Source of the DNA: an uncultured Pseudomonadota bacterium
GTDB taxonomy: Bacteria; Bdellovibrionota_C; UBA2361; CALMIO01
Reading direction: 5' to 3'
Length of the DNA: 64,000 nt
Assembly: GCA_937864035.1 (NCBI GenBank)
Contig: CALMIO010000002.1
Coordinates: forward strand, 243,877 to 307,876
Position 1 is the first letter of the stretch. Each line of letters starts with the position of its first letter. Below are positions 15,711 through 63,954 of the stretch, piece by piece. Below the pieces are notes generated by a model. It made no database searches. It had not been told where the DNA came from and saw only the letters and a list, made by a program, of their open reading frames with translations. The translations under genes were made by a program, and so were the position numbers.

Positions 15711-16033
15711 AAAACAAAAAAAATAATTCTCCTATTGTCGTTTAAACTCAATATTTAACCCGACAAAAACGAGGCAAGTCGTTAAATTTGTTTTATTTTT
15801 TTCGACAAAAGTTGTTAAATTCTTGTGCGCCTTTTGTTTGTAAGATGTCGTTTATTAAGGTTGTTTTATTTGCTCGTTCTATAAAACATATATTTTTACT
15901 GTTGTTAACTTACAGTTTTTAAACAGTAAAAATATATGTTTTATAGGGGTTTGTTTTGTTTATCTACAACTTTTTGTTGTACTATTACTACTACTATATT
16001 TAATTTATAAATTAATAATATTAAAAAAGTTTT
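15711..16033. other. Candidate oriC: AT-rich dnaA-dnaN spacer with DnaA box TTATCTACA (15960-15968, one mismatch to TTATCCACA) and a downstream AT-rich putative unwinding stretch
   Basis: Seen directly in sequence. Flanked by dnaA and dnaN, the classic location of oriC. Confidence 0.45.
15879..15946. repeat. Perfect 25-bp inverted repeat (arms 15879-15903 and 15922-15946, 18-nt spacer containing GTTAAC)
   Basis: ctataaaacatatatttttactgtt and aacagtaaaaatatatgttttatag are exact reverse complements, followed by a T-rich run. Either a dnaA terminator or an origin-associated hairpin. Confidence 0.7.
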
Positions 16034-17152: not shown

Positions 17153-17283
17153 TAGTTCAATTATTAGATAGAAAATTTTAACAATCCAAAAGTTTTGTTA
17201 AAAATTACCCTTAGGCGTAGGCGCACAATTTTAATTTATTAAAATCCATAGCGAGCCCATTAAAAAATTAAGAAACTCGCTTT

Positions 17284-18378: not shown

Positions 18379-18440
18379 AAGGGTTAGCCCAACAAAAATC
18401 TTCGTCTCATAAAAAGACACCGAAAACGCCTTAAAACTAT

Positions 18441-18469
18441 TTGCTATGAACCCCCAGTTGGTATATAAT
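18441..18469 (+). promoter_or_regulatory. Sigma70-like promoter upstream of gyrB: TTGCTA, 17 nt, TATAAT
   Basis: -35 TTGCTA at 18441-18446, 17-nt spacer, -10 TATAAT at 18464-18469, about 55 nt upstream of the gyrB ATG. Confidence 0.45.
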
Positions 18470-18482
18470 AATATGGTATTAG

Positions 18483-20960
<2,478 letters not shown>

Positions 20961-28156: not shown

Positions 28157-31100
28157 TTATAAGGCTTTTTCTGATCCCAGGCGCAATAAAGATTCTTTTA
28201 AAAAACCTCCCCAAGCAGTTTTGGCTTCGAGTAGTTTTCTAGATTCGCCCTGAAAAACTATTTTTCCACCTTCCTCTCCCGACTTTGGTCCAAGCTCAAT
28301 GATCCAATCGGCGTTAGCCAATGCGATCTCGTTATGTTCGATCATAATGATGGTGTTTCCCGAACTAGCTAATTTTTTTAGAAAAGCCATCAGTTTGGCA
28401 ACATCGCTATTGTGCAAACCGGTAGTTGGTTCGTCCAAGATAAATAAGGTGTTGGATGCGTTTTCGATTGCTAACTGCTCTGCTAGTTTAATTCTTTGGC
28501 TTTCGCCTCCAGAGAGTGAGTTTGAGGGTTGTCCTAAAGTTAGATATCCTAAACCCAATTCACAAACAGCTAATACCACCCGATGAATGTTTTTGTAAGA
28601 AACAAAAAGATTTTTAGCCTCTTCGAAGGTTAAACCTAGTATTTGGTCAACACTCAAGCCTTCAAATTTCGGAATTTTTGCTAGTTCGCCATAGCGCGAA
28701 CCACCGCAAGTTTCACAGATCATTACAGCATCCGCCAAAAAACTCATTTCTAGCTTAATCTCTCCCAAACCTTTGCAAATTTGGCAACGCCCCTCGCCAG
28801 CGTTGAAGGAAAAATAGCTTGGCGAAAAACCTCGAGCTTTAGCCTCTAAGGTATTGGCGAAAATTTTTCTTATATGATCCCAAATTCCGAGATAAGAAGC
28901 CGGTGTTGAGCGAGAGGTTCCACCTATCGGAGATTGATCGACGGTCTTGACACCGATTATTTCAAGATCGCTAGTAATTTCACCGTATGGAGAAAGCCAT
29001 TTTTTTTCTTTGCCATATTTTGAACAGATAGTTTCCGCGATAGTTCCATTTACTAAACTGCTTTTACCAGCTCCAGATACCCCTGCCACCACGACTACGT
29101 ATTGTAATGGAATTTTTAAATCCAATGATTTTAGGTTGTTTAAGCGGGCATTTTTAACGGTGAGCCACTTTGTTAAAAATTTTTTTTCGGAAGCTTCGAC
29201 CTCAATATTATTGAAAGAAAGAGCTTCAGCGACTTTAAAATTTTTTGAGTCTCCGTTATAGATAATTTTGCCACCGTTTTTACCCCCACCCGGACCAACG
29301 TCAATCACATAATCAGCCGCTCGAATTGATTCGAGATCGTGCTCAATCATTAAAACGGAGTTGCCTTGCTCGACCAGTTCCCTGAGAGCCGCTAGCGTTA
29401 ATCTATTTTCGAGAGGATGAAGCCCCGCGCTTGGTTCGTCAAATATATAAAACGTGCCCGTAAGGGGCGAGCCTATAGCTGAGGCAATTCTGAGCCTTTG
29501 CAGTTCGCCGCTAGAGAGTTGGCGGGCGCTTCTGTCAAGCGGCAGGTAACTCAAGCCCAGTTTAATTAACGTTTCTAACCTCCTTTCGCACTCTGAGATA
29601 ATAACCGGAGCTAGCTTCTCTAGTTTGGGAAAGCTTTTAAGGTTAATACTCTTTAAAAAGCCTAGCATTTCGGGGGGCGTTTTTGAGGCGGCTTCGGCTA
29701 TATTAAGACCGTTGATTGTCAAACAGAGAGCTTCCCTTTTTAATCTGGCGCCGCCGCAAAATTTACAAAAAGCGCCAGTTTCTTCAAAGCCGCTTCCCGA
29801 ACAAGATGGACAAGCACCGCGTCTAGAGATAAATGAGAGATCTTCCGGATCGGGTTTTGAAAACCCCCGTCCGCACTCAGAGCAACTTCTTTTGGCGCTA
29901 TAAAGATAAGAATTGTTATCAGAAAAAATTTCGAGCGCTCCTTCTCCAAGAGCTAGCGCCTTGTTAACGCACTCTATTAGCAAGTCAGAGGGAATATTAG
30001 CTGGATTTAATTTGCCAATGACGTATTTAATCCAGTGTTGTTTGTTGCGATCAAGAGAGTCAAGCGCAGAATTTGGCGAACAAAACAGGATTCGATCAAT
30101 TTGAATTTCGTCGTAACCTTCGTCTATTGCTCTTTTAATAATTTCATTGTGCTTGCCCTTTTTGCCGGAAACTATTGGAGCCATTATTCTGATTGATTTA
30201 TTATAGCTCGTTTTGATTTCGGCGGCGATCTCTTCCGCGCTTAGGTCTGAAATTTTGGAAGCAGGGTGATCCGGGCAGTGTTGTAATCCGCATTTGGCGT
30301 AAAGCAATCGCAAATAATTGTAAGCTTCGCTCATTGTGCCCACGGTTGATAATTTTGAGGGCTGAAAGGTGTGCTGATAAACGCAAACAGTTGGAGGTAC
30401 GCCGGAAATATCCAAGATGTCAGGCTTTTTAAGCTCAGAGACGAATTGGCGGGCGTAAGGAGAAAGTGTTTCCAAATATCTTCTTTGCCCCTCGGCGTAG
30501 ATAATATCTTTTGCGATAGTTGATTTCCCAGATCCAGAAACGCCGGTTAAGGCAACTAATTTATAAAGAGGTATTTTGATATCTATGTTTTTTAAGTTGT
30601 GTTCTTTCGCCCCAAAAATTGAAATTTCAGCAAAAGATCCATCCTTTTTGAAATTTTTTTGAATAATTTTATTGGTTTGATCGTCTAATTTTGATCGTTC
30701 TTTAAGAGCAATCTGCGTATAAGATCGTGGATTAAGCTCCCCGCTAATAAAGTCATTCGGAGTTCCAACCTTAATTAATTCTCCTCCCTCAGAGCCTCCT
30801 TCGGGACCAAGATCAATAATCCAATCGGCGCTGGCTATTAGATCAAGATTATGCTCGACACAAATTATACTTTGTCCACGATCTGTTAGCTCGCGAAAGA
30901 GTCGAACTAAGCGAGCAACATCTTTGCGGTGAAGCCCGGTGGTTGGTTCGTCAAATATTAAAAGCGCCTTTTCTTTCTCGGCTTCAACAATAAAGGGGGC
31001 CAATTTAAGTCTTTGAGACTCTCCGCCCGAAAGTTCGCTTAACGGGTGTCCGAGGGTTAAGTGTCCCAAACCTAATTTTTCTAACACCGAAGTTATTTTT

Positions 31101-33439
31101 GTTAGTTCGGGCAGATCGGAAAATAAATCGCCGCAATCAGAAACGGTGGTTGCCAAAAGATCCGCGGCATTTTTGTTGCGAATAAAGCATTCTAGAACCT
31201 TTCCCGAAAAACGCTTCCCGAGGCAAACCTCGCAGGTTAAATAAACATCTGCTAAAAATTGCATCTCTTCCACTAAATAGCCGGCGCCTTTGCAGGTCGC
31301 GCAACGACCGCGGTCGACGTTAAATGAAAAATGTGATTTTGTTAGTTTCCTAAGTTTGGCATCAGGAGAATTGGCGAGTTGGTTTCGTAAAACCTCCCAG
31401 ATTCCAGAATAAGTGGCGATGTTTGAGCGCGGGCTTTTAGCAAGAGAAGTTTGATCAACAAAAAGGATTTCATCAAAAGAATCTTTGCCGAAAATTTGTT
31501 CGCAGGAACCAGGGGAACTTTGAAAAATAACCTCTTTTACTAAGGTGCTTTTTCCGCTTCCGGAAACGCCGCTTATCGCGATCAACTTGGCGGCAGGAAT
31601 GTCAAGATCGAAACCTTTTAAATTACGAGCTCGTGCAGATTTTATGCTAATAGCGATCTTTGCCTTTTCCGAGTTCTCAACACCTTTTTCTGTTTCAAAA
31701 AAGGGCAATTGAAATTTGTTTGATTCTCCAAAATAAACGAGCGAGCCGCCATTGTTTCCAGCTCCGGGACCAATTTCTAGAACATTATCGGCGTTTTTTA
31801 GATATTCCAAATCATGTTCAACTATCAACACGGAATTTCCTTGATCTCTCAGGTCGTTTATAGCGGAGATTAAATTTTTCGTATCCCGCGAGTGCAAGCC
31901 AACAGAAGGCTCATCTAAAACAAACTGAGAAGAAACAATTCCACCGGAAATTGCGGCGGCGAGATTTAGGCGTTGAGTTTCGCCGCCAGATAAGGTGCGA
32001 GCTTGTCGGTCAAGGGTTAAATAACCCAAACCAAGTTTTAATAGATAATCGAGGCGCGACAAAAGATTTTGAAAAACTCCTGTCAGCTCTTTGGGAAAAG
32101 TGGAGAGAAGTAATGCTTTTTGATATTGCGAATCAAACCACGGTTTTAGCTCTTTTATCTGTAGCCTCCAAAGATCGGCGATAGACAATCCGCCAAGCCG
32201 ATAAGCAAGAGCGCTTCGCTTTAATCTTGAACCCTCACAACTCTTACACAAAACCTGAGAGCGATATTTTGAGAGAAAAATTCGCACATGAGTTTTGTAA
32301 CTTTTTTTCTCTAGTTTTTTAAACCAGTGATTTAAGCCAACGTATTCTCTGCTTTTGTGATTTAAAATTAAATCTTTTTGCTCTTGTTTAAGCTTTTTCC
32401 AAGGAGTTTTTAAATTTATTCCTTTAGTTTCACAAAAATTCAACAACCTGCGCCTAAAAATTTTCATTGACGCGCCCGCCCAAGGATGAATAGCGTTTTC
32501 TTCGATCGAAAGATCTTGATTTGGCGCTACCTTGCTCGGATCGATCTCGAGATTAAAACCGAAGCCTTTACACTCTTGGCAGGCGCCATACGGATGATTA
32601 AAGGAAAAAAGAGATGGCTTGGGAGCATCTATTGTTATATCGGAACAACCGCAACTTGGGATTTTGTTGTAGTTTATAACATCTATTTTCGGACCGGTAG
32701 CGCCCTCTGTTTGCGCCACCAAACTAGCCTTTCCGCCAGAAATAGAAAAAGCCGCCTCAACGCTTTCGGCGACTCGCTCTATTTTAAGAGTTTTTTTAGT
32801 TAATCTATCTAGCAAGATCAGAAGATAATCTTGTTCTTTCAAAAATGCGGGGCTTAACTCAGAAAGGTTGAGCAGGTTGCAATTTTTTTGATTTAGAACC
32901 CTTTCATAGCCAAAAAGAATTAACCTTTCAACCTCTTCAACAGGATTTTTTTTCTTAAGATTAAAGTTTGAGCATATATAAAAGATCGCACTTGGAGATC
33001 TTTCAAAAAGTTCAAAGATTTCTCTGGCGATTTTATCGCTGGTCCAATAAGAAAGCTGATTGCCGCAATTGGAACAAAATGGAGCTGCTAAGTTTGACCA
33101 GATGATTTTCAAGTAATCATCAATATTGCTTAAGGTGCCAACGCTCGATCTTGAGCTGGTAATTTTGGTTTTTTGCCTGATGGCGATCGCAGGGCGGACA
33201 TTTTTGATCGAATCAACATTTGGTCTTTTGACCTTCTCAAAAAATTGTCTTGTATAAGGAGAGAATGTTTCCACATAGCGCCGTTGACCTTCGGCATAAA
33301 CCGTATCAAAAGCTAGCGACGATTTGCCGGATCCGGAAACTCCGGTAACAACCGTCATTTGATCGTGAGGAATATCTATAGAGAGATCTTTTAGATTATG
33401 CTCTCTCGCCCCTTTAATTTCTAAATAGCGGCTTTTCAA
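28157..33439 (-). CDS. uvrA: Tandem-duplicated UvrA (two complete UvrA units fused, 1760 aa, four ABC ATPase modules)
   Basis: Four Walker A sites (GVSGSGKSS, GVSGSGKST, GVSGSGKST, GVSGAGKSS). UvrA N-terminal signature appears twice (EHNLKDLSIDIP...YAEGQRRYVETFSPYTRQF near aa 10-65 and EHNLKNIDIKIP...YAEGQRRYLETLSPYARQF near aa 940). Multiple CxxC zinc modules. Confidence 0.9.
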   Translation of the reverse strand: MKSRYLEIKGAREHNLKDLSIDIPHDQMTVVTGVSGSGKSSLAFDTVYAEGQRRYVETFSPYTRQFFEKVKRPNVDSIKNVRPAIAIRQKTKITSSRSSVGTLSNIDDYLKIIWSNLAAPFCSNCGNQLSYWTSDKIAREIFELFERSPSAIFYICSNFNLKKKNPVEEVERLILFGYERVLNQKNCNLLNLSELSPAFLKEQDYLLILLDRLTKKTLKIERVAESVEAAFSISGGKASLVAQTEGATGPKIDVINYNKIPSCGCSDITIDAPKPSLFSFNHPYGACQECKGFGFNLEIDPSKVAPNQDLSIEENAIHPWAGASMKIFRRRLLNFCETKGINLKTPWKKLKQEQKDLILNHKSREYVGLNHWFKKLEKKSYKTHVRIFLSKYRSQVLCKSCEGSRLKRSALAYRLGGLSIADLWRLQIKELKPWFDSQYQKALLLSTFPKELTGVFQNLLSRLDYLLKLGLGYLTLDRQARTLSGGETQRLNLAAAISGGIVSSQFVLDEPSVGLHSRDTKNLISAINDLRDQGNSVLIVEHDLEYLKNADNVLEIGPGAGNNGGSLVYFGESNKFQLPFFETEKGVENSEKAKIAISIKSARARNLKGFDLDIPAAKLIAISGVSGSGKSTLVKEVIFQSSPGSCEQIFGKDSFDEILFVDQTSLAKSPRSNIATYSGIWEVLRNQLANSPDAKLRKLTKSHFSFNVDRGRCATCKGAGYLVEEMQFLADVYLTCEVCLGKRFSGKVLECFIRNKNAADLLATTVSDCGDLFSDLPELTKITSVLEKLGLGHLTLGHPLSELSGGESQRLKLAPFIVEAEKEKALLIFDEPTTGLHRKDVARLVRLFRELTDRGQSIICVEHNLDLIASADWIIDLGPEGGSEGGELIKVGTPNDFISGELNPRSYTQIALKERSKLDDQTNKIIQKNFKKDGSFAEISIFGAKEHNLKNIDIKIPLYKLVALTGVSGSGKSTIAKDIIYAEGQRRYLETLSPYARQFVSELKKPDILDISGVPPTVCVYQHTFQPSKLSTVGTMSEAYNYLRLLYAKCGLQHCPDHPASKISDLSAEEIAAEIKTSYNKSIRIMAPIVSGKKGKHNEIIKRAIDEGYDEIQIDRILFCSPNSALDSLDRNKQHWIKYVIGKLNPANIPSDLLIECVNKALALGEGALEIFSDNNSYLYSAKRSCSECGRGFSKPDPEDLSFISRRGACPSCSGSGFEETGAFCKFCGGARLKREALCLTINGLNIAEAASKTPPEMLGFLKSINLKSFPKLEKLAPVIISECERRLETLIKLGLSYLPLDRSARQLSSGELQRLRIASAIGSPLTGTFYIFDEPSAGLHPLENRLTLAALRELVEQGNSVLMIEHDLESIRAADYVIDVGPGGGKNGGKIIYNGDSKNFKVAEALSFNNIEVEASEKKFLTKWLTVKNARLNNLKSLDLKIPLQYVVVVAGVSGAGKSSLVNGTIAETICSKYGKEKKWLSPYGEITSDLEIIGVKTVDQSPIGGTSRSTPASYLGIWDHIRKIFANTLEAKARGFSPSYFSFNAGEGRCQICKGLGEIKLEMSFLADAVMICETCGGSRYGELAKIPKFEGLSVDQILGLTFEEAKNLFVSYKNIHRVVLAVCELGLGYLTLGQPSNSLSGGESQRIKLAEQLAIENASNTLFILDEPTTGLHNSDVAKLMAFLKKLASSGNTIIMIEHNEIALANADWIIELGPKSGEEGGKIVFQGESRKLLEAKTAWGGFLKESLLRLGSEKAL

Positions 33440-34537: not shown

Positions 34538-35722
34538 TTAACTGATTATGTGAGCAAGAGTTTCATCTCGATGCTTTTCGAGATATTTAACAAAAGGCGT
34601 TCCGCCAGTTCCGACTTTATTTGGGTTGCTGGCGGTTTTTTCTGATTGAGAGTGTATATAAGAAACGGCGTATTCTAAGTGCAGGGATCTAAATTTCTCA
34701 ACCCAGCCAACGCATTTGTTGTAATTGGTCAAAGCGTTGCCGGCTTCGTTGCGGGCATTAAGAATGGCTTCTCGAATATTTGGTAGATTTTCTAAAACTT
34801 CGATAAATTTTTTGTGAGCGGGAGGCATATAGCTTCGCATCTCTAAAAGATATTGTTTTAAAAGATCATTTTGGTGATTTATTCCGAGCGCGGCGTCAAG
34901 CGCCGGAATAATCGAACTTTGCGCTCCAGTTTCGCCGCGAAATTTTTGAGGTTTGTTGCCATATTCTTCGACCCCCTCGTAAATTAAGCCGTCGGGCAGA
35001 GCAGGATGATTACTCCAGCCGTGAATATAGGGGCGAACTCTGTTGTAGTATATGTATGGATCGCACTTTTCTGGCATCCTTAAGAGGGTAGTATGAATAT
35101 TTTCGAGAGCTCCGGCTATGACGGCTAGCGTTGCCGAAGCGGCAGCGAAATCTTTGGCTTTGGCTTGCGCTGAAAGGTTTAAAAGTTGGTTTATTGCCCA
35201 CGAAGCTCGGGCTTCAATCTCTATGTGGATTGTCACGAACCAATCTTCGTCTTGACCTCCTAAAAAATTTTGCCTAAGCCCCAAATTTTCGACGGATATT
35301 TCAAGGTTATTATCAACAAGTCTCCAATTATTAAGCGCATAGGAAGCGTAAGAGAGCACGGGCGGTCTGCCTAATAAAGAACCAATTTTATGCCAAGGAA
35401 CTGCCAAGGAGGCTGGAATTGATCCCGGAATTTTTTTCTCTCCCCAAACATAGGCATGACCCAAAAATGAAAGGATCATAAAGGCGCGTTCGCGCTCGGC
35501 TCGCGAATTTAACTTTTCAACTGGCAACTTTTTAAGTTTGGCGATTTTTTGTTTTACTTGATCGCAAAGTAAGAGCTTTGGGAGTTCAGCGCCGAGTTCA
35601 TCGACAATCTCCCATTCTTTAGAAAGCTTTGACAGCGGCTCCGTGTTAGGCAAAAAGCCGTTATTTGGATCTATTTCAAAGTCGGCGTTTGAATATTTAT
35701 TTTCGTTTGGTATAGAATTCAT
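34538..35722 (-). CDS. Indoleamine 2,3-dioxygenase (IDO) family heme dioxygenase homolog
   Basis: Three blocks match animal IDO1: FRGETGAQSS (IDO1 FAGGSAGQSS), EMRSYMPPAHKKF (IDO1 DMRRYMPPAHRNF, includes the proximal heme His) and VGTGGTPFVKYLEK (IDO1 KGTGGTDLMNFLK). 394 aa. Confidence 0.75.
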   Translation of the reverse strand: MNSIPNENKYSNADFEIDPNNGFLPNTEPLSKLSKEWEIVDELGAELPKLLLCDQVKQKIAKLKKLPVEKLNSRAERERAFMILSFLGHAYVWGEKKIPGSIPASLAVPWHKIGSLLGRPPVLSYASYALNNWRLVDNNLEISVENLGLRQNFLGGQDEDWFVTIHIEIEARASWAINQLLNLSAQAKAKDFAAASATLAVIAGALENIHTTLLRMPEKCDPYIYYNRVRPYIHGWSNHPALPDGLIYEGVEEYGNKPQKFRGETGAQSSIIPALDAALGINHQNDLLKQYLLEMRSYMPPAHKKFIEVLENLPNIREAILNARNEAGNALTNYNKCVGWVEKFRSLHLEYAVSYIHSQSEKTASNPNKVGTGGTPFVKYLEKHRDETLAHIIS

Positions 35723-43388: not shown

Positions 43389-44501
43389 ATGCGAATGTCT
43401 TTTGCCATTAGCTCATTTTTTTTCTTGCTTTTATTTGGCGAAAAAATTTGTTGCGCCGATCAAATTATAGCTGGCCCATATCTTCAAGACGCAAACAAAG
43501 ACAACATGACGGTTGCTTGGGTTGCGAGCGATAAGGGGTATGGAAAATTGCGGATAATATCTTCAACAACTGAAAGAAGACTCTTCCGCGGCGCCCCCTC
43601 TAATTATAGGGCGGTTAAAGTTTTTGGGTTAAAACCATCAACATCGTATCGGTATTATATTTTGGCAGATTCTGGTAGTAAAAAAATTTACAAAGCAGTT
43701 TTTAAAACGTCTCCGGAAAGTGGCGCTGAAAAATTTCGCGCCGTTGTTTTTGGAGACTCGGGAACCGCTTCGCCGGAGCAATTTGCGCTTGCAAAAAAAA
43801 TTGAAAAAGTTCGTCCCAATATTCTCATTCATACCGGAGATTTAATTTATCCTAAAGGAGAGAGGGAGAATTATTTTGGGGCTTTTTTTGAGCCTTATCG
43901 TAGATTGCTTCCGCGCATTCCTTTTTATCCAGCGCTTGGCAATCACGATGTTTCAAACATCGATGCTTATCTCGACTATTTTCATCTGCCAAAACGAACT
44001 AGCGGCAGTGAACGTTATTACTCTTTTGTTTATGGAGCGGCCGAGTTTTTCGCGCTCGATAGTAATCTTCCTTTAGATCAAAATTCTAATCAGTATTTGT
44101 GGCTTAAAGACAACTTAAGTCAAAAACAGGAAAATTTGTGGCGAATAGTTTTTTTTCACCACCCACCATTTTCAGCTGGAGGACATGGAGATACTCTAAG
44201 GGTTAGGGAGAGTTTGGTTCCGCTCTTTGAAAAGTACCAAGTTAATTTAGTTATAAGCGGTCACGAGCACTCTTATCAAAGATCTCATTTAAATAACGAG
44301 AGAGGAATAATAAGACCGTTGTATATGGTTACCGGTGGCGGCGGCGCGCCGCTCGCTGAGCACCAACGTGATTCCGAAAAAATCGCCGTTTATTTTAGAG
44401 CGTTTCATTTTGTGATTTTGGACATTGATCAAAACCTGATTAAAACAGAGGTCATAGATTTGTCGGGTAAGGTAATAGATAACTTTTCGCTGGAACGTTA
44501 A
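43389..44501 (+). CDS. Secreted purple-acid-phosphatase-like metallophosphoesterase
   Basis: Signal peptide, N-terminal PAP-type domain (GPYLQ...MTVAWV), metallophosphoesterase motifs GDSG, HTGDLIY, GNHD, GHEHSYQR. Confidence 0.7.
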   Translation: MRMSFAISSFFFLLLFGEKICCADQIIAGPYLQDANKDNMTVAWVASDKGYGKLRIISSTTERRLFRGAPSNYRAVKVFGLKPSTSYRYYILADSGSKKIYKAVFKTSPESGAEKFRAVVFGDSGTASPEQFALAKKIEKVRPNILIHTGDLIYPKGERENYFGAFFEPYRRLLPRIPFYPALGNHDVSNIDAYLDYFHLPKRTSGSERYYSFVYGAAEFFALDSNLPLDQNSNQYLWLKDNLSQKQENLWRIVFFHHPPFSAGGHGDTLRVRESLVPLFEKYQVNLVISGHEHSYQRSHLNNERGIIRPLYMVTGGGGAPLAEHQRDSEKIAVYFRAFHFVILDIDQNLIKTEVIDLSGKVIDNFSLER

Positions 44502-45265
44502 TTAAAAACAACCCCAAGAGCCCGTTTTTTTATAAAACTAATCGCAGAAGAACTTTGAAGGTTAATATAAAAAGAGGTATCTCCCAACCCACAAGAGAGC
44601 ACTGTTCCAAAAGAAGTTGTTCCGATTAATCCCAATCTGTTATTTTTATTTTTTGCTAGGGCGGGTCCTCCGGAATCGCCATTGCAAGTGTTGCTACTGA
44701 TACCAGTAAAGTGAGTAATAAAATGATCTCTAGTGACAGCCGCAATTGTAGCAGTTCCAACATTAAGAACGCCTATTTTCCCAAATTGATCTCTGCCGTA
44801 ACCAGCTATGGAAATTTTAGCGCCGGGAGATGTTTTTACCGAAGTTAAAAGAGGAATTTGTTTAACTCCTCTAGGTTTTCTGCGTAGCCGCAAAATTGCC
44901 AAGTCGTTATATAAAAAACCATCTTGTTTTCCAATTTTGATTTTTGGATGAATATAAAAAGAGCTGAGAGAGAAAAATTTTTCGCCAAATTTCACTCGAA
45001 TATTATTGCGAGAAACCTGATCCACGCAATGCCAAGCCGTTAAAACTGCTGTTGGTCCTATTAGAGAACCAGAACAAATTCCGGTTCTCCCAAAAAAATC
45101 TTTTGTTATGACCAAACCGATTGGCGAACCTTTTGTTGAGGCTGGGGCTCCGTTGATAATTTTGAAGTTAAAAGATGAACTGCTCTGGCTTTCGCAGATT
45201 GAATTGGCGACGCAGAGAAAAGAGATAACGAATGCCCCTAAAAATTTAATTTGAATATTTTTCAT
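44498..45265 (-). CDS. Secreted trypsin-like serine protease (S1 family)
   Basis: Signal peptide, His active-site TAWHCV, Ser active-site CNGDSGGP. Confidence 0.75.
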   Translation of the reverse strand: MKNIQIKFLGAFVISFLCVANSICESQSSSSFNFKIINGAPASTKGSPIGLVITKDFFGRTGICSGSLIGPTAVLTAWHCVDQVSRNNIRVKFGEKFFSLSSFYIHPKIKIGKQDGFLYNDLAILRLRRKPRGVKQIPLLTSVKTSPGAKISIAGYGRDQFGKIGVLNVGTATIAAVTRDHFITHFTGISSNTCNGDSGGPALAKNKNNRLGLIGTTSFGTVLSCGLGDTSFYINLQSSSAISFIKKRALGVVFN

Positions 45266-45349
45266 TAATATTAATAAGGATCATTTAGATTTTATCTGGC
45301 AAAGATACTTTAATTTTAAAACTTAGGCAAATTAAAACCTAAAAACTCT

Positions 45350-47386
45350 CTAATTAAATTCATATATTAAAAAGTCGCCGTAATTGCTGATAATTTTAAG
45401 ACAATTAAATGATTGGCTGTTTAAAGCTGGATAAGCTTTGCGCTCTAGCGGACCCAAGATCACGTATCTAATATTTTCTTTTTGCAGAAGAGTCCGTTTG
45501 TTTTCGCAGAAATTGTCAAGATAAATCTCTTTGGTAACATTATTTCTTCTCTCTGTTTCGGCATAAGCTTTATAAAGAAGATTGATGTGGTTAATCCATC
45601 CCAAATAACTCTGTTTGCCAGCAAGAGTTGAAATAGCGGAGGTGTAACTATAGGGGTTTCCCTGCGCCTCCAACACAACGCCTTCTTGAGCGTCACCTAG
45701 CTTTTTAATTGTCTCAGCCGCTCCGGCGAACTCACTCTCGATTTGAGACAAACCACGCTCTTTGGGTTGCATGACTGTGCCTTTAAATGATCTAATTTTA
45801 GTGGTATCAGAGAAAAAACCCGAAAGAACTATTAAAAACGCGATTCCTAATGGATAAGTTATATAAGAGATTTTTGGGAAACTTTCTTTAAATTTTTCAT
45901 ATAAAGAACCAAGCATATAAATTGCGTAGAGGTTTAGGAAATACCAATTAGAACTGTAAATTTTGAAAATAGTGTTCATTCGCTCATTTTCTCCCCCGTA
46001 AGGATCATCCATAAAGATAGTTTCGGGTAAAATTAAAAGAAATATGGCGGTTACCCCAAGGGCTTCAGCAACATTTTTTCTGTTGCATATTCTAAAGCAG
46101 ATTGTTCCGAAAAGGGGTAAAAGAACCCAAAGCGCTTCGCTTGAAAAAAAGAGAGGCACGGCCAGTAGCGCGCTAAAAAATCTCTCAAAAATAGTTTGTG
46201 CCGTAAAAATGGCGCCGAAGAAGATAATCACTAAAGGCACTCCAAAATGTAAGCCTAATTCACTTAAGTTAGTTCTTATTATCGGCGCTTTGACTAATTT
46301 AAAAGGATAACTTTCAACAGAGATTTCTTTTTTCATTAAGAACAGAGAAATTGATAAAATTAGCAAAAAAGAGAGAAGAACGAGCGCGTTTTGAGAAAAT
46401 TTTAGCTTATCAAATAGCTCTGACTTTTTAATGTTTTTTAAAGATTTAAAATTGACCGCCGCGAATATTAGCGAGAATAAAAATATGATCCAAATAGGAG
46501 CTTCCCAAGCATTGGCCGTGAATAACCAGAGAGGCATGGTTATAAAAGCGAATATGGCGAGAAGAATATGTCGCTCCAAGGAGAAACAATGCGGAATCGC
46601 TCTTGATAACAATAAAAAAGCGAAGGGTATAAAACCTAAATTCAAAAAATGTGGGTGAAGATCTCCAAGCAGAAAAGACCAAGCTGGAAATTCATTAATT
46701 GCTCCCTTTATTACCCTTGAAGGCCCCCACCAATTTTTGTCTTCAAGATAAAAATGCTTAATGCCAGAAAAATTTGAACCAACAGCAATAGCAACCGTAA
46801 AGCAAAATGAGCTAATTGAGTTGAATTTGAGAACAACCTTAAGTGCCGCATAAATAGAGCTTGCATAAAAAGCTAGAGAGAAAGCCGCTAAAGAATGGTA
46901 CACAACCCATGTTTCAATTTCGAGAAGGTTGCTTAAGACCGCCCCAAATCTATACCAATATATGTAGTACCCAAGCCTTTCTCCGGCAAACCAAGGCTCA
47001 ATTGGGAAGGTCGGATTGTTAATAACTGCGCTTAGTAAAGAGTAATCTCTCAGCCTTTCGCCGATCGGATAAAAATCTGGCCATAAAAGGCAGAGCTCAT
47101 AAAAACAAACGTAAGAAATAAAAAATATGGTTAACGGACCGATTTGAAAGGCAAAATTTTTTTTTCTAAAAGGATTTTGAAAAGAAAAATTAAAAAAAAG
47201 AGCGACTAGCAGTTGTATTAATAATAAAGATATGTAAATCGACAGCTTGAAAGAAACCGACAATTTGCTCAGCAAAACAGCCAACAAAGGAAGAGTTAAT
47301 AAAGTTAAAAACGTGAACTCATATATTCTGCGGGTCAAAGTTGAGTAAAATAAGGCTATTAGAGAGATTGCTAATAGGAGAATCAT
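45350..47386 (-). CDS. Large polytopic membrane protein (678 aa), DUF2298/YYY-like, putative GT-C-type glycosyltransferase
   Basis: More than 12 TM segments, shared motif FPAWSFLLGDLHPHF and Tyr-rich segment GYYIYWY. Paralog of the adjacent upstream gene. Confidence 0.55.
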   Translation of the reverse strand: MILLLAISLIALFYSTLTRRIYEFTFLTLLTLPLLAVLLSKLSVSFKLSIYISLLLIQLLVALFFNFSFQNPFRKKNFAFQIGPLTIFFISYVCFYELCLLWPDFYPIGERLRDYSLLSAVINNPTFPIEPWFAGERLGYYIYWYRFGAVLSNLLEIETWVVYHSLAAFSLAFYASSIYAALKVVLKFNSISSFCFTVAIAVGSNFSGIKHFYLEDKNWWGPSRVIKGAINEFPAWSFLLGDLHPHFLNLGFIPFAFLLLSRAIPHCFSLERHILLAIFAFITMPLWLFTANAWEAPIWIIFLFSLIFAAVNFKSLKNIKKSELFDKLKFSQNALVLLSFLLILSISLFLMKKEISVESYPFKLVKAPIIRTNLSELGLHFGVPLVIIFFGAIFTAQTIFERFFSALLAVPLFFSSEALWVLLPLFGTICFRICNRKNVAEALGVTAIFLLILPETIFMDDPYGGENERMNTIFKIYSSNWYFLNLYAIYMLGSLYEKFKESFPKISYITYPLGIAFLIVLSGFFSDTTKIRSFKGTVMQPKERGLSQIESEFAGAAETIKKLGDAQEGVVLEAQGNPYSYTSAISTLAGKQSYLGWINHINLLYKAYAETERRNNVTKEIYLDNFCENKRTLLQKENIRYVILGPLERKAYPALNSQSFNCLKIISNYGDFLIYEFN

Positions 47387-49611
47387 AATTTGATTTTAAA
47401 TAGATAACTTGAATTTTCCGACCAAACCACTTCAAAGATATTAGGAAAATCAAGAAACAACCTTAGTCCTTGATCTCCGTAAGTTGCTCGCTCCAATCCG
47501 CTAAAAACAAGGTAATTAATTTTATAATTTTTGATGATTTCAACCGCTTGATCGATAAAACTAGTTTGATAAAGCAAGCGCAAGTCATTTTGGCGCTTGT
47601 TAATCTCGTCTCGACTGACACCCCGTTGAACAAGATGATATTCCCAACCTAAAACAGTAGGCAGGCCAGTGTGCATGGTAATTCTAGTAAAATCTCCATA
47701 AGAGCCCCCGAATGCTTCGGCAATTACCGGCACTCCTTGCACCATTTTGTTTAAATATTGCACAATTGCGTTATCATTGGGCGAATATTGCGCGTAATAA
47801 GCTTCGCCGTCCAGTGTTGGACGAGGACCAGCAACCCTTTGAAAACGAGCCATTAAAACCATCAGGGATATCGCGCCTGCGAAACTAAGAAAGAGAGGTG
47901 CTGTGTAAAGCGCACTGCTGGCATAGCGAAAGAGAAAATCTTTTTCTCTTGAGGCAATAAGCAATTTTTGCAAACCGACTAAGGTGGCGATTCCTAAAAG
48001 AGGATATACGATATAATAGATTTTAAAAATCGTGTTCATCCTGTCAAAAAGATAAAGTTGTTCCGCTAGAATAATCGTTGAGCCTAAAGAGATAAGTAAA
48101 ATTCCGCTAAAAAAAGATCGCAGATAAGATCTGTCGGTGATAACAAGCCACAACGTCCCGAAAAAAATTATAAGTGCTGCAAAACAAGCAATCTCGAAAT
48201 TTGGCGGATTGAGAAGAGGAGTTTTTTCAGAAGCTCTAATAAAAATCTCTATTCGTGAGAGAAGGAATGCTAAACTAGAAATTATTAGCGCGAGCGACAT
48301 TTTGACAACAGCTTTAAATTTATTTTTGGCGGCGAAAAATATTTGTATCATAGCCAAGACCATTAATGGCGCGACAAATTGTCCGAAAGCGGAAAAAGCT
48401 TGCCAAAAACGATTGAATTCTGGGGCTGTTACGAAACCTAGACCCGGGAGTGAATCGCCCCGCACTTTGATAAAAAAAGGTAAAAGTATGGGAGAAGCCG
48501 CTAGCGAGATGAAAAAAATATCTCTGATAGCTCTTATAAACACCCTTCCTATAGACCTGATATTTAATTTTGGCAGGGGTCGAAACAGGATAATAACAAG
48601 AGTTAATGTTGAATAAAAAAGAAAATCCCAAACGTTTATTGCCATTAACGCTCCGAGAGAAAGACCGGCAAGCAGTAATCTTCCAAGAGTAATAGAAGAA
48701 AATTTTATTCCAGCTCCTCCAATTAACGGAATTAAGAGAAACAAAAAGGCCATTGAAAATGGGGGCGCGATCATGTGCGGGTGTAAATCTGCAAACAAAT
48801 ATGACCAGATTGGAAACTCCGTGAAAGCCGGAGAGGTGAAAAAGCGGGTAGTTGCCCAAAATAGATCAAAAGAGTTCTTTGCTGGACTTGAATAAACATC
48901 CGATCCGCTTAAAACCAATCTGAACAACTCTAGATTTGCAGAAAAAACGGCAAGAAAAAGAGCTCCGAAAAATGCAAAAATTCTTTTTTTGGTTAATGTT
49001 GTTAAAATTGAATAAAGCGTGCTTGCAAACAGACCAGCGGCGCTTGCAACCGATAAATTATAACCAAATCGTGGATCAACACCGCTAAGCTTATGAACCA
49101 ATCCCCAAAAGTAGTAACCAAAATAATAATATTTAAGTGGCATGCCGGCGGCCCAAGGCTCTTCAGCCGGAAAGTTTGTAAGTCGATTAAAATATCTAAT
49201 AAAACTTAAATCCATTGGTTTTTCTCCCCAGTAAATTTCCGGGTGAAAAGCTAAATTAATTGCAATTGCAACGAATGCCAGAAAAAAAATCAATTCGGCG
49301 TAGAAAAGTTCTTTGATAATATTTTTTAGATCTGGCCGAATTTTTTTTCGAAGATAAAGAGTTGCCGTTAGAGAAAAAAACAAAAAGCCGCTAAAGATAA
49401 TTTTTACTCTGATCGGGGAAAGTGGTAATGGAAGCAGAAGAGAAGTTGCCCATATAAAACAACCAACTAATAGCAACCCCAAAACCTTCGATATTCCAAA
49501 TCCAAAATCATTGGAAAAACGCAAAAGGGTTAAATTGATTGGTAGGCTAATAAGCCCAATAAAAAAAAGAATTACCAGCCAGATTGCCGAATTATAAAGC
49601 GATTCCATCAA
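47383..49611 (-). CDS. Large polytopic membrane protein (742 aa), DUF2298/YYY-like, putative GT-C-type glycosyltransferase
   Basis: Motif FPIWSYLFADLHPHM and LKYYYFGYYF. 4-nt overlap with the downstream paralog. Confidence 0.55.
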   Translation of the reverse strand: MMESLYNSAIWLVILFFIGLISLPINLTLLRFSNDFGFGISKVLGLLLVGCFIWATSLLLPLPLSPIRVKIIFSGFLFFSLTATLYLRKKIRPDLKNIIKELFYAELIFFLAFVAIAINLAFHPEIYWGEKPMDLSFIRYFNRLTNFPAEEPWAAGMPLKYYYFGYYFWGLVHKLSGVDPRFGYNLSVASAAGLFASTLYSILTTLTKKRIFAFFGALFLAVFSANLELFRLVLSGSDVYSSPAKNSFDLFWATTRFFTSPAFTEFPIWSYLFADLHPHMIAPPFSMAFLFLLIPLIGGAGIKFSSITLGRLLLAGLSLGALMAINVWDFLFYSTLTLVIILFRPLPKLNIRSIGRVFIRAIRDIFFISLAASPILLPFFIKVRGDSLPGLGFVTAPEFNRFWQAFSAFGQFVAPLMVLAMIQIFFAAKNKFKAVVKMSLALIISSLAFLLSRIEIFIRASEKTPLLNPPNFEIACFAALIIFFGTLWLVITDRSYLRSFFSGILLISLGSTIILAEQLYLFDRMNTIFKIYYIVYPLLGIATLVGLQKLLIASREKDFLFRYASSALYTAPLFLSFAGAISLMVLMARFQRVAGPRPTLDGEAYYAQYSPNDNAIVQYLNKMVQGVPVIAEAFGGSYGDFTRITMHTGLPTVLGWEYHLVQRGVSRDEINKRQNDLRLLYQTSFIDQAVEIIKNYKINYLVFSGLERATYGDQGLRLFLDFPNIFEVVWSENSSYLFKIKL

Positions 49612-49799
49612 TAATATTTTATTTTCCCTTAGGTATTTTAGCTATATAGCGATTGATCTGGGAGTTTATGCAAGAGTAATTTGCTTCTTTTCTTCGAAAA
49701 TCGATCTATTCTTGCAAAGCGTCCCCTCAAAAGGCAGTATAATAAGGACGATTTTTTGCCTCGAGTTTTTCGCGAAAAGTCCATAAAAATAGGAGCGCC

Positions 49800-50492
49800 A
49801 TGAACATAGATTTAAAAAAAACACTCGCTAAAAAAATTGCCAACCAGATTAAAGATGGAGAGATCGTAGGAGTTGGTACTGGTTCAACGGTAGAAGCTGT
49901 TATTTCTGAGATAGGCCTAAGAATTAGTAACGAAGGCATAAAAATTAGTGCGGTTCCAAGCTCAACCAGAACAGCTTTAGCCTTGCAGACAGCTGGTATT
50001 ACCACTCTAACTTCAAGATATTCTGGTCAGTTGGCTTGGAGCTTTGACGGCGCTGATTTAGTAGAGAAGAGTTCTCTTTGGAGTTTAAAGGGCGCTGGAG
50101 GTTTGGCGATGCTTGGTGAAAAAATTATGGCGACCCGCTCCGAACGGTTTATTGTTTTAATCTCGGAAGAAAAGTTTGTTGATAAATTACAAGACGTTTC
50201 TGTTCCGATTGAGGTTGTTCCTCAAGCGATAGAGTATGTAAGGCGAGAATTGCTGAAAATGGGAGCAAAAAAAGTTGAGCTGAAGTTAGCCAACGAAAAA
50301 CTTGGACCGGCTTATACTGAATCGGGTAATCTGGTTTTATTTGGTGACTTTTTAAAAATTAGCCGCGAACTTAATTTGTTAATAAAAAGTTTGACTGGCG
50401 TTGTTGAAACTGGTTTGTTTATTGGAGAAGTTGATGAAATTTATGTTGGCAAAGCGGACGGAAGCATAGAGCATTTTGTTGCCCAGGCTTAG
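49800..50492 (+). CDS. rpiA: Ribose-5-phosphate isomerase A
   Basis: GVGTGSTV phosphate-binding motif and DGADLV, 230 aa. Confidence 0.85.
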   Translation: MNIDLKKTLAKKIANQIKDGEIVGVGTGSTVEAVISEIGLRISNEGIKISAVPSSTRTALALQTAGITTLTSRYSGQLAWSFDGADLVEKSSLWSLKGAGGLAMLGEKIMATRSERFIVLISEEKFVDKLQDVSVPIEVVPQAIEYVRRELLKMGAKKVELKLANEKLGPAYTESGNLVLFGDFLKISRELNLLIKSLTGVVETGLFIGEVDEIYVGKADGSIEHFVAQA

Positions 50493-61716: not shown

Positions 61717-63954
61717 ATGTTTCAAACAAAGTTATTATCAAAAATTATTTTTATATTCTTTTTGAGTTATTTTTTATTTTGCTTATCTTTTACTTTTTCA
61801 TCCGGAGTTATTTACAAATTTCCCGTTAAATCTCTTTATCCAAACGTTGGAGGAATTTCTGCCCAAGGATGGACTCTGCCAATTGCGACCGTTAGCGACG
61901 AAAGAATATTTGGCTTTTCGGCAGAAGCTGAGTTTTATCTTGATAGTGAGCGAAAATTCGATCAAAGTTCGTTATTTGCCAATAACGGCTCTTCTCCAGT
62001 TTTGTTTAGAAACGACTCGATTGTGGCTGTTTCTGCTCTCGACTTTTTCGATGACTTTAAAGCCTCTTTGGGATGTCGCGAGGGTAAAGTTTCTCGAGGA
62101 GGGCGCTTAATAGGAGTTAAACTGTCTGCTATTAGAGTAATTCCGCGCGGGCTTTTTTTGTTGAAACCATCATTTGCTTTATTGCCAACCATTTTGCTCG
62201 CGGCGCTTTTATCTTTGCCGTTGTTTTTTGGGAAAGATGCTACAAGGATTCAGGTGCCAACAGCGGTTGGTGGAAGCTTGCTCGCTTTTTTTTTGACGCG
62301 CGCTTATTTGCCGGATAATTTGGGGGTGTTACTGCCGTTGTATTTAGCGGCATTCTTGGTGTTGATTGGATTTTTAATTGCCCAAAACGCCCGGCAATCT
62401 CCCTCCCCCGGAGAAGGAGCCTTTTTAAAACCCATTAAAAACCCTTTTGGTTTTGTTTGCATCTTGCTGATTTTGATTTCGTTGTTGATAAGACTAAATG
62501 GCGTTGATTTTGGTTTGCCATTTAAATACCACCCTGATGAATCAAGAAAAATCGCGATAGCGCTTAGAATGGTTGAAACTGGACAGTTAGATCCCGATTA
62601 CTTTAGGCACCCTACTTTTTTGCTATACGCGACTGCCGGAGTTACCTATTTGAGCAACGCTATTTTTGATCTTCCGTTAAATATTGAAACTGCCGCGCTT
62701 TCCGGAAGAGTAGTTAGCGTTGTTTTAGGGTCGCTTTCGGTCGCTTTGTTGTATTTAATAGGAAGTTTTTTGTTTGGAACTTGGGCAGGAGCAATCGCAG
62801 CTGTTTTTTTATCATTAGCCCCTCTGCATGTGGTTTGTAGTCGCTATATTAAAGAAGACGCCGCCCTTTTGTTTTTTATTCTCGCAAGTTTTTACTTTGC
62901 CCTGCTTTATACCAAACGTCAAAAAATGCGAGACATTTTTTTGGCTGCGCTTTTTGCCGGCTTTAGTGCTAGCGCTAAATATTCCGGGATATTGTCATTG
63001 GCGCTTGTTGTTTTGGCGTTATTTAATAGTGGCATACCAAATCGACAGCAAATTACAACCCTTATTAAGTTTACTCCGATATTATTACTATTTTTTGTTC
63101 TAGGTTTTTTAGTTTTTACTCCCTATTCTTTGATCAATACCTCTCGCTTTGTGAAGGACTTTTTAGGGGAAAAGGCGCACATGGAAAAGGGGCACGGAAC
63201 AATTATTACTGCCGCTTCGCAAGCTTGGAGCTACCATTTGAAAGAGAGCTTATTTTTTGGAAGCGGATACGGCGGACTCTGTTTATTTTTTGTTTCTTTG
63301 GGTTTTTTTCTGGCAAAGCGAGAACAAAAGGGGATTATAATAGCCGGAGCTTTTGCGCTTTTTTATCTTCCGGCGGAGTGGGTAAAGGCAAAGCCAGCAC
63401 CTCAACCAGAAAGATACGTATTGCCGTGTTTGCCTTTTATTTACTTAGGAGTGGGTTATTTTTTTCGAGAGCTTTCGGCTCTATCTATTCGCGCTAGAGG
63501 TTTCTTTTTGATTGCAATGACATTTTTTTTATCCCTATCATTAACCTACTCACTTGCCCATTCTTTTGCTATTAAAAAAGATACTCGGATATTGGCGGCA
63601 GATTGGATAATAAAAAATGTGCCTCGTGGAAAAACGATAATAATAGATTGGCGTTTTTATGGACCTTCCGTTAGAGAAGATGAATATAAGTTAATTGATC
63701 TTAAACGGCTTGGTCCGGGTCGTTTCCGCAAAGCTTTAACGGAAGAGGGGCTTAAGGAGTTGGCGGCTGATTACTTTGTTTTTTCAAGTTTTATTAGCGA
63801 TCGTTATCTTTCAAAATATAGGCAGACATCCGATCTTGGAGATCTTTATCGGAGTTTTTTTGCGCGTCGTCAACCAGAGGTTGTTTTTGAAAAAAAATTA
63901 TTTGAGTATGGTTTTCATAATCCTAAACTCGCGATTTATAAAGTTACCAACTAA
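61717..63954 (+). CDS. GT39 / ArnT-PMT-like GT-C glycosyltransferase (745 aa polytopic membrane protein)
   Basis: First periplasmic-loop motif HPDESRKIAIALRMVETGQL (DExRxxxxAxxM, ArnT/PMT-type), many TM segments and a C-terminal soluble domain. Confidence 0.65.
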   Translation: MFQTKLLSKIIFIFFLSYFLFCLSFTFSSGVIYKFPVKSLYPNVGGISAQGWTLPIATVSDERIFGFSAEAEFYLDSERKFDQSSLFANNGSSPVLFRNDSIVAVSALDFFDDFKASLGCREGKVSRGGRLIGVKLSAIRVIPRGLFLLKPSFALLPTILLAALLSLPLFFGKDATRIQVPTAVGGSLLAFFLTRAYLPDNLGVLLPLYLAAFLVLIGFLIAQNARQSPSPGEGAFLKPIKNPFGFVCILLILISLLIRLNGVDFGLPFKYHPDESRKIAIALRMVETGQLDPDYFRHPTFLLYATAGVTYLSNAIFDLPLNIETAALSGRVVSVVLGSLSVALLYLIGSFLFGTWAGAIAAVFLSLAPLHVVCSRYIKEDAALLFFILASFYFALLYTKRQKMRDIFLAALFAGFSASAKYSGILSLALVVLALFNSGIPNRQQITTLIKFTPILLLFFVLGFLVFTPYSLINTSRFVKDFLGEKAHMEKGHGTIITAASQAWSYHLKESLFFGSGYGGLCLFFVSLGFFLAKREQKGIIIAGAFALFYLPAEWVKAKPAPQPERYVLPCLPFIYLGVGYFFRELSALSIRARGFFLIAMTFFLSLSLTYSLAHSFAIKKDTRILAADWIIKNVPRGKTIIIDWRFYGPSVREDEYKLIDLKRLGPGRFRKALTEEGLKELAADYFVFSSFISDRYLSKYRQTSDLGDLYRSFFARRQPEVVFEKKLFEYGFHNPKLAIYKVTN

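Follow-up and report, generated by a model that had tools for sequence, protein, structure and literature searches.

Among the membrane glycosyltransferases of the GT-C fold, Pmt1-Pmt2 (GT39) and EmbA-EmbB (GT53) are pairs of paralogues that function as heterodimers. ArnT (GT83) is a periplasm-facing enzyme of the same fold whose donor, an undecaprenyl-phosphate-sugar, is made by an ArnC-type GT2 enzyme and whose acceptor is lipid A. In the hexose-P-dolichol system of haloarchaea, Agl22/Agl23, a GT2 polyprenyl-P-hexose synthase is combined with an Agl23-like protein of family TIGR03663. The DUF2298 proteins (Pfam PF10060), which include those described as Chlor_Arch_YYY (NCBIfam TIGR03662), are without such a history. 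The literature searched contained no functional study of any member and assigned DUF2298 no role in the Agl22/Agl23 pathway. A first-pass annotation had described the proteins as experimentally uncharacterised.

Here we describe two DUF2298 genes, A and B, in a 64-kb window of an Oligoflexia genome, the whole stretch of DNA that was analysed. We propose, with a probability of about 0.6, that they encode two cooperating, periplasm-facing GT-C glycosyltransferases that depend on polyprenyl-phosphate-sugars and diverged from each other anciently.

Two overlapping genes of the DUF2298 family

The ORF listing for the minus strand gives A as 742 residues from a TTG start (47383..49611) and B as 678 residues (45350..47386), the sizes reported in the first-pass annotation. 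Public gene calls place the start of A one codon later, at the ATG at 49608, and it is this call of 741 residues that is entered in Table 1. The genes had been described as adjacent with an overlap of 4 nt, and this is confirmed. The ATGA overlap suggests translational coupling of A and B, and the same overlap is present at nine further Bdellovibrionota loci and at several Chloroflexota loci. A scan of positions 44300–50000 for promoters and terminators gave fewer matches than were found in shuffled sequence, so that the evidence for a transcription unit is limited to the overlap. All of the strings quoted in the annotation were located, FPIWSYLFADLHPHM and LKYYYFGYYF in A and FPAWSFLLGDLHPHF and GYYIYWY in B. 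The label "giant" was too strong for proteins of ~700 residues, and the "near-identical loop motif" holds locally but not for the proteins overall, as pairwise BLASTP aligns them in two colinear blocks (E = 7e-11 and 3e-10) with only 24–31% identity within these local blocks.

Table 1 Positions in the window of the two genes, their motifs and domains, and the PMT_2-type gene
Feature	Position	Strand	Residues	Remarks
Gene A, DUF2298/Chlor_Arch_YYY protein	47383..49608	minus	741 aa	upstream of B
Gene B, divergent DUF2298 protein ("B-type")	45350..47386	minus	678 aa	downstream of A; ATG start
ATGA overlap	47383..47386	minus		4 nt; A stop codon over B start codon
A, GEKPMD	49210..49227	minus	128–133	acidic motif, start of long periplasmic loop after TM4
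A, YYYFG	49117..49131	minus	160–164	YYYxG, family-naming motif
A, DLHPH	48775..48789	minus	274–278	periplasmic end of TM7 (predicted)
A, RMNTIFK	48022..48042	minus	523–529	periplasmic loop and helix start, TM14/TM15 (predicted)
A, C-terminal periplasmic alpha/beta domain	47386..47844	minus	589–741	predicted
B, GERLRD	47045..47062	minus	109–114	aligned with GEKPMD of A by BLASTP
B, YYIYWY	46952..46969	minus	140–145	degenerate YYYxG; third Y to I, G to W
B, DLHPH	46649..46663	minus	242–246	
B, RMNTIFK	45962..45982	minus	469–475	
B, C-terminal periplasmic domain	45353..45790	minus	533–678	predicted
PMT_2/PMT-type GT-C protein	61717..63954	plus	745 aa	Pfam PMT_2 and PMT matches

Judged by their profile scores, both proteins belong to DUF2298, far above the gathering threshold of PF10060 (27.8 bits; model length 488 positions): A scores 224.5 bits (E = 3.6e-66, model positions 2–488) and B 169 bits (E = 2.5e-49, model positions 20–487). 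Because both match this model and the BLASTP blocks are colinear, the likeness between them reflects homology rather than chance. A, with 355.1 bits and the YYYxG motif, is above the curated cut-off for TIGR03662, set at 300.25 bits, whereas B, with YYIYW (140–144) at the place of YYYxG, falls below it at 220.9 bits, a result of the degeneracy of this motif. On these scores A is a full member of TIGR03662 and B a divergent relative beyond its curated boundary, one of a Bdellovibrionota-centred subgroup with YYxYW instead of YYYxG. The first-pass assignment to DUF2298/Chlor_Arch_YYY is thus correct by HMM search, with B below the Chlor_Arch_YYY cut-off. Both are already annotated as DUF2298 proteins and count as ordinary representatives of this known but uncharacterised family. 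The family is large: at E ≤ 1e-3 its profile finds representatives of ~11,300 clusters built at 50% identity, of which 5,727 remain at E ≤ 1e-30. Many of the matches contain the DUF2298 module two or three times in one chain, an arrangement mentioned in the TIGRFAM description of TIGR03662.

Predicted fold and topology

A Pfam search of A and B at E ≤ 0.1 gave no match besides PF10060, and in particular none to STT3, PMT or PMT_2. Sequence searches of PDB chains with A and the family profile returned only an esterase, TIM and rhodopsin at E ≥ 0.002, and no oligosaccharyltransferase (OST), and hhalign found no significant similarity between A-type sequences and PMT_2 modules (probability 0.4%, E = 0.15). 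The top hhalign alignment, itself non-significant, sets EKPMD of A opposite HPDE of PMT_2, and we do not count it as evidence. As no link to solved structures or to PMT_2 is found at the level of sequence, the GT-C assignment is drawn from predicted structures.

The AF2 models of A and B have the same architecture, with about 16 membrane helices in each (the annotation had estimated more than 12) and a C-terminal periplasmic domain in both. In fold comparison the membrane core is superposable on known GT-C enzymes; Pmt2, Pmt4 and Pmt1 are near the top of the matches, ALG12 and AftA also match, and EmbA does so more weakly. The C-terminal domain has, in the predicted structures, the fold of the central-core globular domain of AglB. 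This comparison of predicted models strongly supports, for both proteins, a GT-C fold whose outer domain resembles that of oligosaccharyltransferases. A positive-inside tally on the AF2 helices gave K/R values for the inside and outside loops of 23% versus 8.5% in A and 25% versus 10.6% in B, and all the conserved motifs, together with the C-terminal domain, are predicted to be on the periplasmic face. The annotation had predicted the GT-C fold and named two observations that would speak against it, a lack of structural similarity and a cytoplasmic position of the shared motif; the likeness is present in the models, and DLHPH falls on the periplasmic side in the tally.

PIG-U and GAB1 are also among the matches, and some proteins with the GT-C fold are not transferases. 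A and B could be non-catalytic in the same way, binding or translocating lipid-linked glycans, serving as a scaffold or chaperone like PIG-U/GAB1 or as a flippase-associated factor, or including one pseudoenzyme. We regard this as very improbable: the best fold matches are bona fide transferases, with Z far above that of PIG-U, and both paralogues keep, densely placed on the periplasmic side, invariant Asp, Glu, His, Arg and Lys residues of the kind typical of active sites.

Conserved residues and a putative active site

The annotation had proposed the conservation of acidic and histidine residues as a check, and in A they are indeed conserved. E129 is invariant both family-wide and in A-type sequences, and D133 is nearly invariant in A-type; H276 is invariant family-wide, where D274 and H278 are nearly so, and all three are invariant in A-type. 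E129 and D133 are, from their conservation, candidate catalytic or metal-binding residues, and DLHPH is a candidate divalent-metal site. The loop after TM4 that holds E129 and D133 (122–178) has helices at 130–142 and 163–175 in the AF2 model. Y160, Y161, Y162 and G164 are invariant in the family alignment (A2), and R523, N525, T526, F528 and K529 are invariant family-wide. The C-terminal domain of A has conserved EAxGxxY, GWxxH, R672 and E706; the family consensus GWxxH reads GWEYH in A and GWINH in B.

B has its own set of constant positions. In a set of 58 B-type sequences E110, R111, R113 and D114 do not vary, and the same holds in B-type for Y140, Y141, W144 and Y145, for D242, H244, P245 and H246, and for R469, M470, N471, F474 and K475. 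Two cysteines of the C-terminal domain, C627 and C662, are likewise invariant and probably form a disulfide. That one paralogue is a dead enzyme was considered and rejected, since almost all of the invariant polar residues are kept in both A and B.

The active site of A and B, as glycosyltransferases, would be made up of motifs in the periplasmic loops, namely E-x-x-x-D, where the long loop after TM4 begins, YY(Y)xG, D-x-H-x-H, N-x-W and R-M-N-T-x-F-K. It would be capped by the C-terminal periplasmic domain, whose predicted fold resembles that of the globular domain in archaeal AglB. On the outer side of the inner membrane, a sugar would pass from a polyprenyl-phosphate-linked donor to an acceptor in the envelope, protein or glycan, with D-x-H-x-H and the acidic residues holding a divalent metal or the phosphate of the donor. 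Catalysis, donor, acceptor and the physical association of A and B are in each case what we infer.

Age and conservation of the pair

In nearly every Bdellovibrionota locus fetched, a B-type gene is immediately preceded by an A-like gene. The same order, with a spacing that is usually of a few nucleotides or an overlap, is found in almost all Bdellovibrionota and most Chloroflexota loci sampled. The cultivable organisms that have a pair include Anaerolinea thermolimosa and Flexilinea flocculi. B-type sequences form their own clade in an NJ tree, the most divergent one, with a mean identity to every other group of 19–22%. Identity, phylogeny and conservation across genomes together rule out a recent duplication, and by these measures the two paralogues, A and B, separated long ago and their pairing is old and conserved. 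The divergences of A and B across genomes are correlated (r = 0.945), although co-divergence and adjacency are expected for any two vertically inherited genes of an operon and are no proof of a complex.

The first-pass annotation took tandem duplication to suggest diversification of substrates, which is unsupported as stated, given that the paralogues are ancient, that the order of the pair is kept and that the overlap is often kept too. In other genomes the A-like module shares a chain with a PMT_2 GT-C module (confirmed with Pfam) or with a second DUF2298 module. The kept order and overlap and the recurrent fusions of DUF2298 modules, with one another or with PMT_2, point to an obligate partnership of A and B rather than a local, diversified duplication. 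It is nonetheless conceivable that the two are independent enzymes that arose by tandem duplication, use different donors or acceptors and work separately, sharing an operon by descent only. Each has the full set of conserved polar residues and could be autonomous, the B-type signature has changed from YYYxG to YYxYW in what is the most divergent clade, and archaeal genomes manage with single DUF2298 genes. We consider this unlikely, because the duplication is ancient and not local, the order and tight spacing persist as described, and recurrent single-chain fusions of two or three DUF2298 modules argue for physical co-operation. Being co-inherited and, it appears, translationally coupled, the two proposed transferases would most likely cooperate, either within a heteromer or by catalysing successive steps.

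Neighbouring genes and a candidate third partner

In the window the pair is located between rpiA and a gene for a trypsin-like protease. No GT2, Agl23-like or other glycosylation gene was found beside it, and GT2 and Agl23-like partners are absent throughout the 64 kb; the functional context is therefore drawn from other genomes, where ArnC/PgfS-like GT2, Agl23-like (TIGR03663) and PMT_2 genes occur near DUF2298 genes. The gene for a PMT_2-type protein (Table 1) is 12 kb from the pair. Locally, the protein aligns best with the PMT_2 modules at the N-termini of PMT_2-DUF2298 fusions (E = 7e-22 to 1e-11), and, because the same module is fused to or adjoins A-like genes elsewhere, it is a candidate for an unlinked third partner, a GT-C enzyme that would probably join A and B. 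The lack of glycosylation genes next to A and B and the distance of the PMT_2 gene are observations against the proposed reading of the pair.

The AglB-like C-terminal domain raises the question of whether A, B or both resemble an OST, moving a preassembled glycan en bloc onto protein from its polyprenyl-diphosphate carrier, with this domain binding the acceptor peptide. This seems to us distinctly improbable, as there is no Pfam STT3 match and WWDYG is absent, the monophosphate-donor enzymes ALG12, PMT and AftA score equally well or better in the fold comparison, and the conserved neighbours, GT2 enzymes of the polyprenyl-monophosphate-sugar synthase type and Agl23-like proteins, point to monosaccharide donors.

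A wider proposal, tentative and on balance doubtful, is that DUF2298 represents an unrecognised OST-like class, a GT-C core with an AglB-type acceptor-binding domain, whose A and B members would form obligate heteromers, in many cases fused or coupled to PMT_2. Joined by a polyprenyl-P-hexose synthase of the ArnC kind and an Agl23-like flippase factor, it might constitute a widespread, never-studied machine for the glycosylation of envelope proteins or glycans in Chloroflexota, Bdellovibrionota and methanogenic and other archaea. Three results, namely the GT-C fold with an OST-like domain, the conserved pairs and fusions, and the company of PMT_2, Agl23-like and ArnC-like genes, turn the DUF label into a testable hypothesis, namely that poorly studied bacteria and archaea have a system for envelope glycosylation that depends on polyprenyl-phosphate-sugars.

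Comparison with known systems

The likeness of A and B to STT3/AglB/PglB (GT66) is in the predicted fold of the C-terminal domain. They differ from these enzymes in having no match to STT3 (PF02516) and no WWDYG, DK or MI motifs, in having three extra N-terminal membrane helices before the unit of a helix plus long loop, and in a genomic context that indicates monophosphate-sugar donors instead. PMT and PMT_2 proteins (GT39/GT83) are likewise set apart by the lack of a profile match, and the loop motif of A is E-K-P-M-D, not D-E. Like A and B, the emb genes stand in tandem, but A and B have no sequence homology to Pmt1-Pmt2 or EmbA-EmbB (hhalign not significant), no DE motif, and no MIR or carbohydrate-binding domains.

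With ArnT and the PMT_2 enzymes A and B share the predicted periplasm-facing GT-C fold and the company of ArnC-like GT2 and PMT_2 genes or modules that accompany DUF2298 genes. ArnT binds a divalent metal through H-x-H in a periplasmic loop, EL4, whereas DUF2298 has D-x-H-x-H, placed earlier, in the second long external loop; ArnT acts on lipid A, and the putative acceptor of A and B is an envelope protein or glycan. The haloarchaeal Agl22/Agl23 system provides the parallel in gene content, as genes of both its partner families, the GT2 polyprenyl-P-hexose synthases and the Agl23-like proteins, often lie near DUF2298 genes, in bacteria as well as in archaea.

The A and B genes

The two membrane proteins are encoded by adjacent minus-strand genes, termed A (upstream) and B (downstream), and all four peptide strings quoted for them in the first-pass annotation are found where expected in the ORF translations. 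In the public annotation of this DNA (GCA_035324065.1, contig DAOLCI010000001.1, "MAG TPA: Oligoflexia bacterium"), A begins at ATG 49608, which makes it 741 residues long; B has 678. The observation is upheld with two small corrections: A starts one codon further downstream, and at ~700 aa both proteins are large rather than "giant". A ends and B begins within a shared ATGA, in which the stop and start codons overlap. The pair is flanked by rpiA and a trypsin-like protease gene, with a cytochrome oxidase operon adjoining; no Agl23-like, PMT_2 or ArnC/PgfS-like GT2 gene is adjacent to it in the window.

Features located in the window
Feature	Position	Strand	Remarks
ORF A	47383-49611	-	ORF listing of window
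ORF B	45350-47386	-	ORF listing of window
PMT_2/PMT-type GT-C protein, 745 aa	61717-63954	+	Pfam PMT_2 and PMT matches; ~240-aa N-terminal extension
Multi-TM ORF, 540 aa	56113-57735	-	At least 9 hydrophobic segments; no Pfam or NCBIfam match
Multi-TM ORF, 697 aa	23082-25175	-	At least 10 hydrophobic segments; no Pfam or NCBIfam match
dnaA-dnaN-recF-gyrB cluster	14127-20960	+	GC skew sign change at ~14-18 kb
1,760-aa protein, duplicated UvrA/ABC modules	28157-33439	-	Two widely separated UvrA-specific domains
Indoleamine 2,3-dioxygenase (IDO) family	34538-35722	-	Strong match, 336 bits; amidohydrolase gene adjoins
Secreted or anchored protein, 416 aa	36648-37898	+	Directly after RmlA-like nucleotidyltransferase gene; sub-threshold match to haloarchaeal Hvo_1808 surface-protein family, 101.8 bits (cut-off 200)

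Elsewhere in the window, the two multi-TM ORFs may represent additional envelope membrane enzymes that are still uncharacterised. Given the dnaA cluster and the change of GC skew, the window probably contains the region of the chromosomal replication origin. The UvrA-like protein is about twice the normal UvrA length, as its two UvrA-specific domains lie far apart.

Family and conserved residues

Against Pfam DUF2298 (PF10060), both proteins align along nearly the whole model (A, 224.5 bits; B, 169 bits), and A also matches NCBIfam TIGR03662 (Chlor_Arch_YYY) at 355.1 against a cut-off of 300.25, B reaching only 220.9. The family suggested in the first-pass annotation is therefore the right one. 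A and B already carry the DUF2298 annotation and are unexceptional representatives of a family that is known but uncharacterised. B is, by sequence, a divergent subtype; the two can be aligned in two colinear blocks only, with 24-31% identity.

A family-wide DUF2298 alignment has 16 invariant positions (A numbering: E129, Y160, Y161, Y162, G164, R255, P266, H276, W327, R523, N525, T526, F528, K529, G648 and R672). Counterparts of nearly all of these are retained in 58 aligned B-type orthologues, where the residues kept include E110, D114, E130-P-W132, Y140-Y141, R224, E232, D242-x-H244-P-H246, N292-x-W294, E455, R469-M-N-T-x-F-K475 and R614, and where YYIYW is fixed in place of YYYxG. Neither A nor B looks like a dead-enzyme paralogue, the conserved residues being kept in both.

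Fold and predicted topology

AlphaFold2 models built from the two alignments are confident, with pLDDT 88.7 and pTM 0.93 for A, and 91.4 and 0.93 for B. Searching the PDB by sequence and by profile yielded no meaningful match; the best 12 Foldseek matches are DPY19, yeast and human STT3, AglB and AftA (E ≤ 2.3e-5). For the models, the fold comparison with GT-C proteins is unambiguous, and from these matches the predicted architecture is a GT-C membrane core with an oligosaccharyltransferase (OST)-type outer domain, which supports the fold suggested earlier. We put the probability that A and B are GT-C transferases at roughly 0.85. Both proteins lie outside GT66, since they have neither an STT3 Pfam match nor WWDYG, only a conserved GWxxH. 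An alternative is that they transfer glycan en bloc in the manner of an OST.

Membrane spans were taken from the AlphaFold2 helices and oriented by a tally of K/R in the loops: 20 in 86 cytoplasm-assigned residues versus 13 in 153 periplasmic ones for A, and 14 in 55 versus 15 in 142 for B. The long loop after TM4, bearing GEKPMD and YYYFG, is predicted to be periplasmic and has two short helices (130-142 and 163-175), a layout typical of the GT-C first external loop. The DLHPH loop, NxW, E516, RMNTIFK and the C-terminal domain are placed on the same side. C627 and C662, invariant in the B-type C-domain, are consistent with an oxidising compartment. The cytoplasmic location of the shared motif that the first-pass annotation had named as telling against its proposal was not seen, since the motif loops fall on the periplasmic side in this orientation. 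The conserved polar residues predicted on that side in both proteins tell against the alternative that A and B bind or translocate a lipid-linked glycan without catalysis, as with PIG-U.

Conservation of the pair and its neighbours

ORFs of 79 loci, from one genome per species, were searched with profiles of both alignments. In nearly all Bdellovibrionota loci with both ends visible, an A-like gene lies directly upstream of a B-type gene on the same strand, at a spacing of -4 to +79 nt. A 4-nt overlap identical to that of the window is present at 9 further loci. Among metagenomic relatives of A with sufficient flanking sequence, the two closest have the arrangement of the window. Pairwise divergences of A-types and B-types from the same loci are correlated (r = 0.945, reached in 0 of 2000 permutations). 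In a rough NJ tree, proteins of "upstream" type from other phyla cluster with the A-types, and the B-types stand apart as a long-branched clade, which suggests a duplication older than Bdellovibrionota. With order and spacing conserved across loci, tandem duplication for substrate diversification gives way to an ancient, conserved, translationally coupled paralogue pair. Independent, diversified enzymes are one alternative, to which the long B-type branch might be fitted; given the conserved order and spacing, we consider functional coupling of A and B the more probable.

In Chloroflexota and other phyla the upstream DUF2298 protein mostly has 1,600-1,790 aa and the next one ~830 aa; archaeal loci have single genes (~600-690 aa). 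The long proteins consist of an N-terminal PMT_2/PMT GT-C module fused to a DUF2298 module. At two loci (L001, L003) the PMT_2 module is encoded by a gene of its own, which adjoins the A-like gene; at two others (L074, L067) it shares a single chain with two DUF2298 modules. In an exhaustive profile search, chains of 2,000-2,700 aa that contain two or three complete DUF2298 modules were numerous. Some DUF2298 proteins carry, besides the PMT_2 module, C-terminal NHL/SGL beta-propellers (L026:12961-17796 and proteins P0006 and P0007), a possible clue to what the acceptor is.

TIGRFAM notes reportedly already describe TIGR03662 as occurring together with TIGR03663 ("flippase activity-associated protein Agl23"). 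A ~700-aa TIGR03663 protein (191 bits, cut-off 126) lies within 10 kb of the DUF2298 genes in 50 of 83 loci, a PMT_2 module is nearby in 45, and a GT2 that can be aligned over its full length with ArnC and PgfS in 26, including all 9 archaeal loci. In connection with Agl23-like neighbours, a purified protein translocates lipid-linked oligosaccharide in liposomes (PMC11182771). The PMT_2 protein of the window best matches the modules fused to DUF2298 in other genomes and weakly resembles TIGR03663.

Two further genes recur close to DUF2298. A flavin amine-oxidase/phytoene-desaturase-like gene was seen at 10 of the 27 Bdellovibrionota loci, L006 and L013 among them, and at 7 of the 9 from archaea (including L034, L040, L052 and L057); a VKOR-DsbA fusion was seen at 8 of the 27. 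Possible roles might be carrier-lipid or sugar modification and C-domain disulfide formation.

Proposed mechanism

The interest lies in a hypothesis for the family rather than in anything peculiar to this locus. A and B would each be a periplasm-facing glycosyltransferase whose donor is a polyprenyl-phosphate-sugar; an ArnC-type GT2 would make this donor, and an Agl23-like protein would assist in presenting it. A polyprenyl-monophosphate donor seems reasonably likely; a protein acceptor is a more doubtful proposition. PglB relies on D56 (EL1) and D154 (EL2). E-x-x-x-D and D-x-H-x-H could serve as ligands of a divalent metal, contact the donor phosphate or supply the catalytic base. In ArnT, the periplasmic-loop motif H265-E266-H267 binds metal (PMC7801869). 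The AglB-like domain may help to bind the acceptor. A, B and a PMT_2 enzyme would act jointly, either within a heteromer or one after another, a physical A-B heteromer being a tentative suggestion. The paralogue pairs Pmt1-Pmt2 and EmbA-EmbB likewise act jointly.
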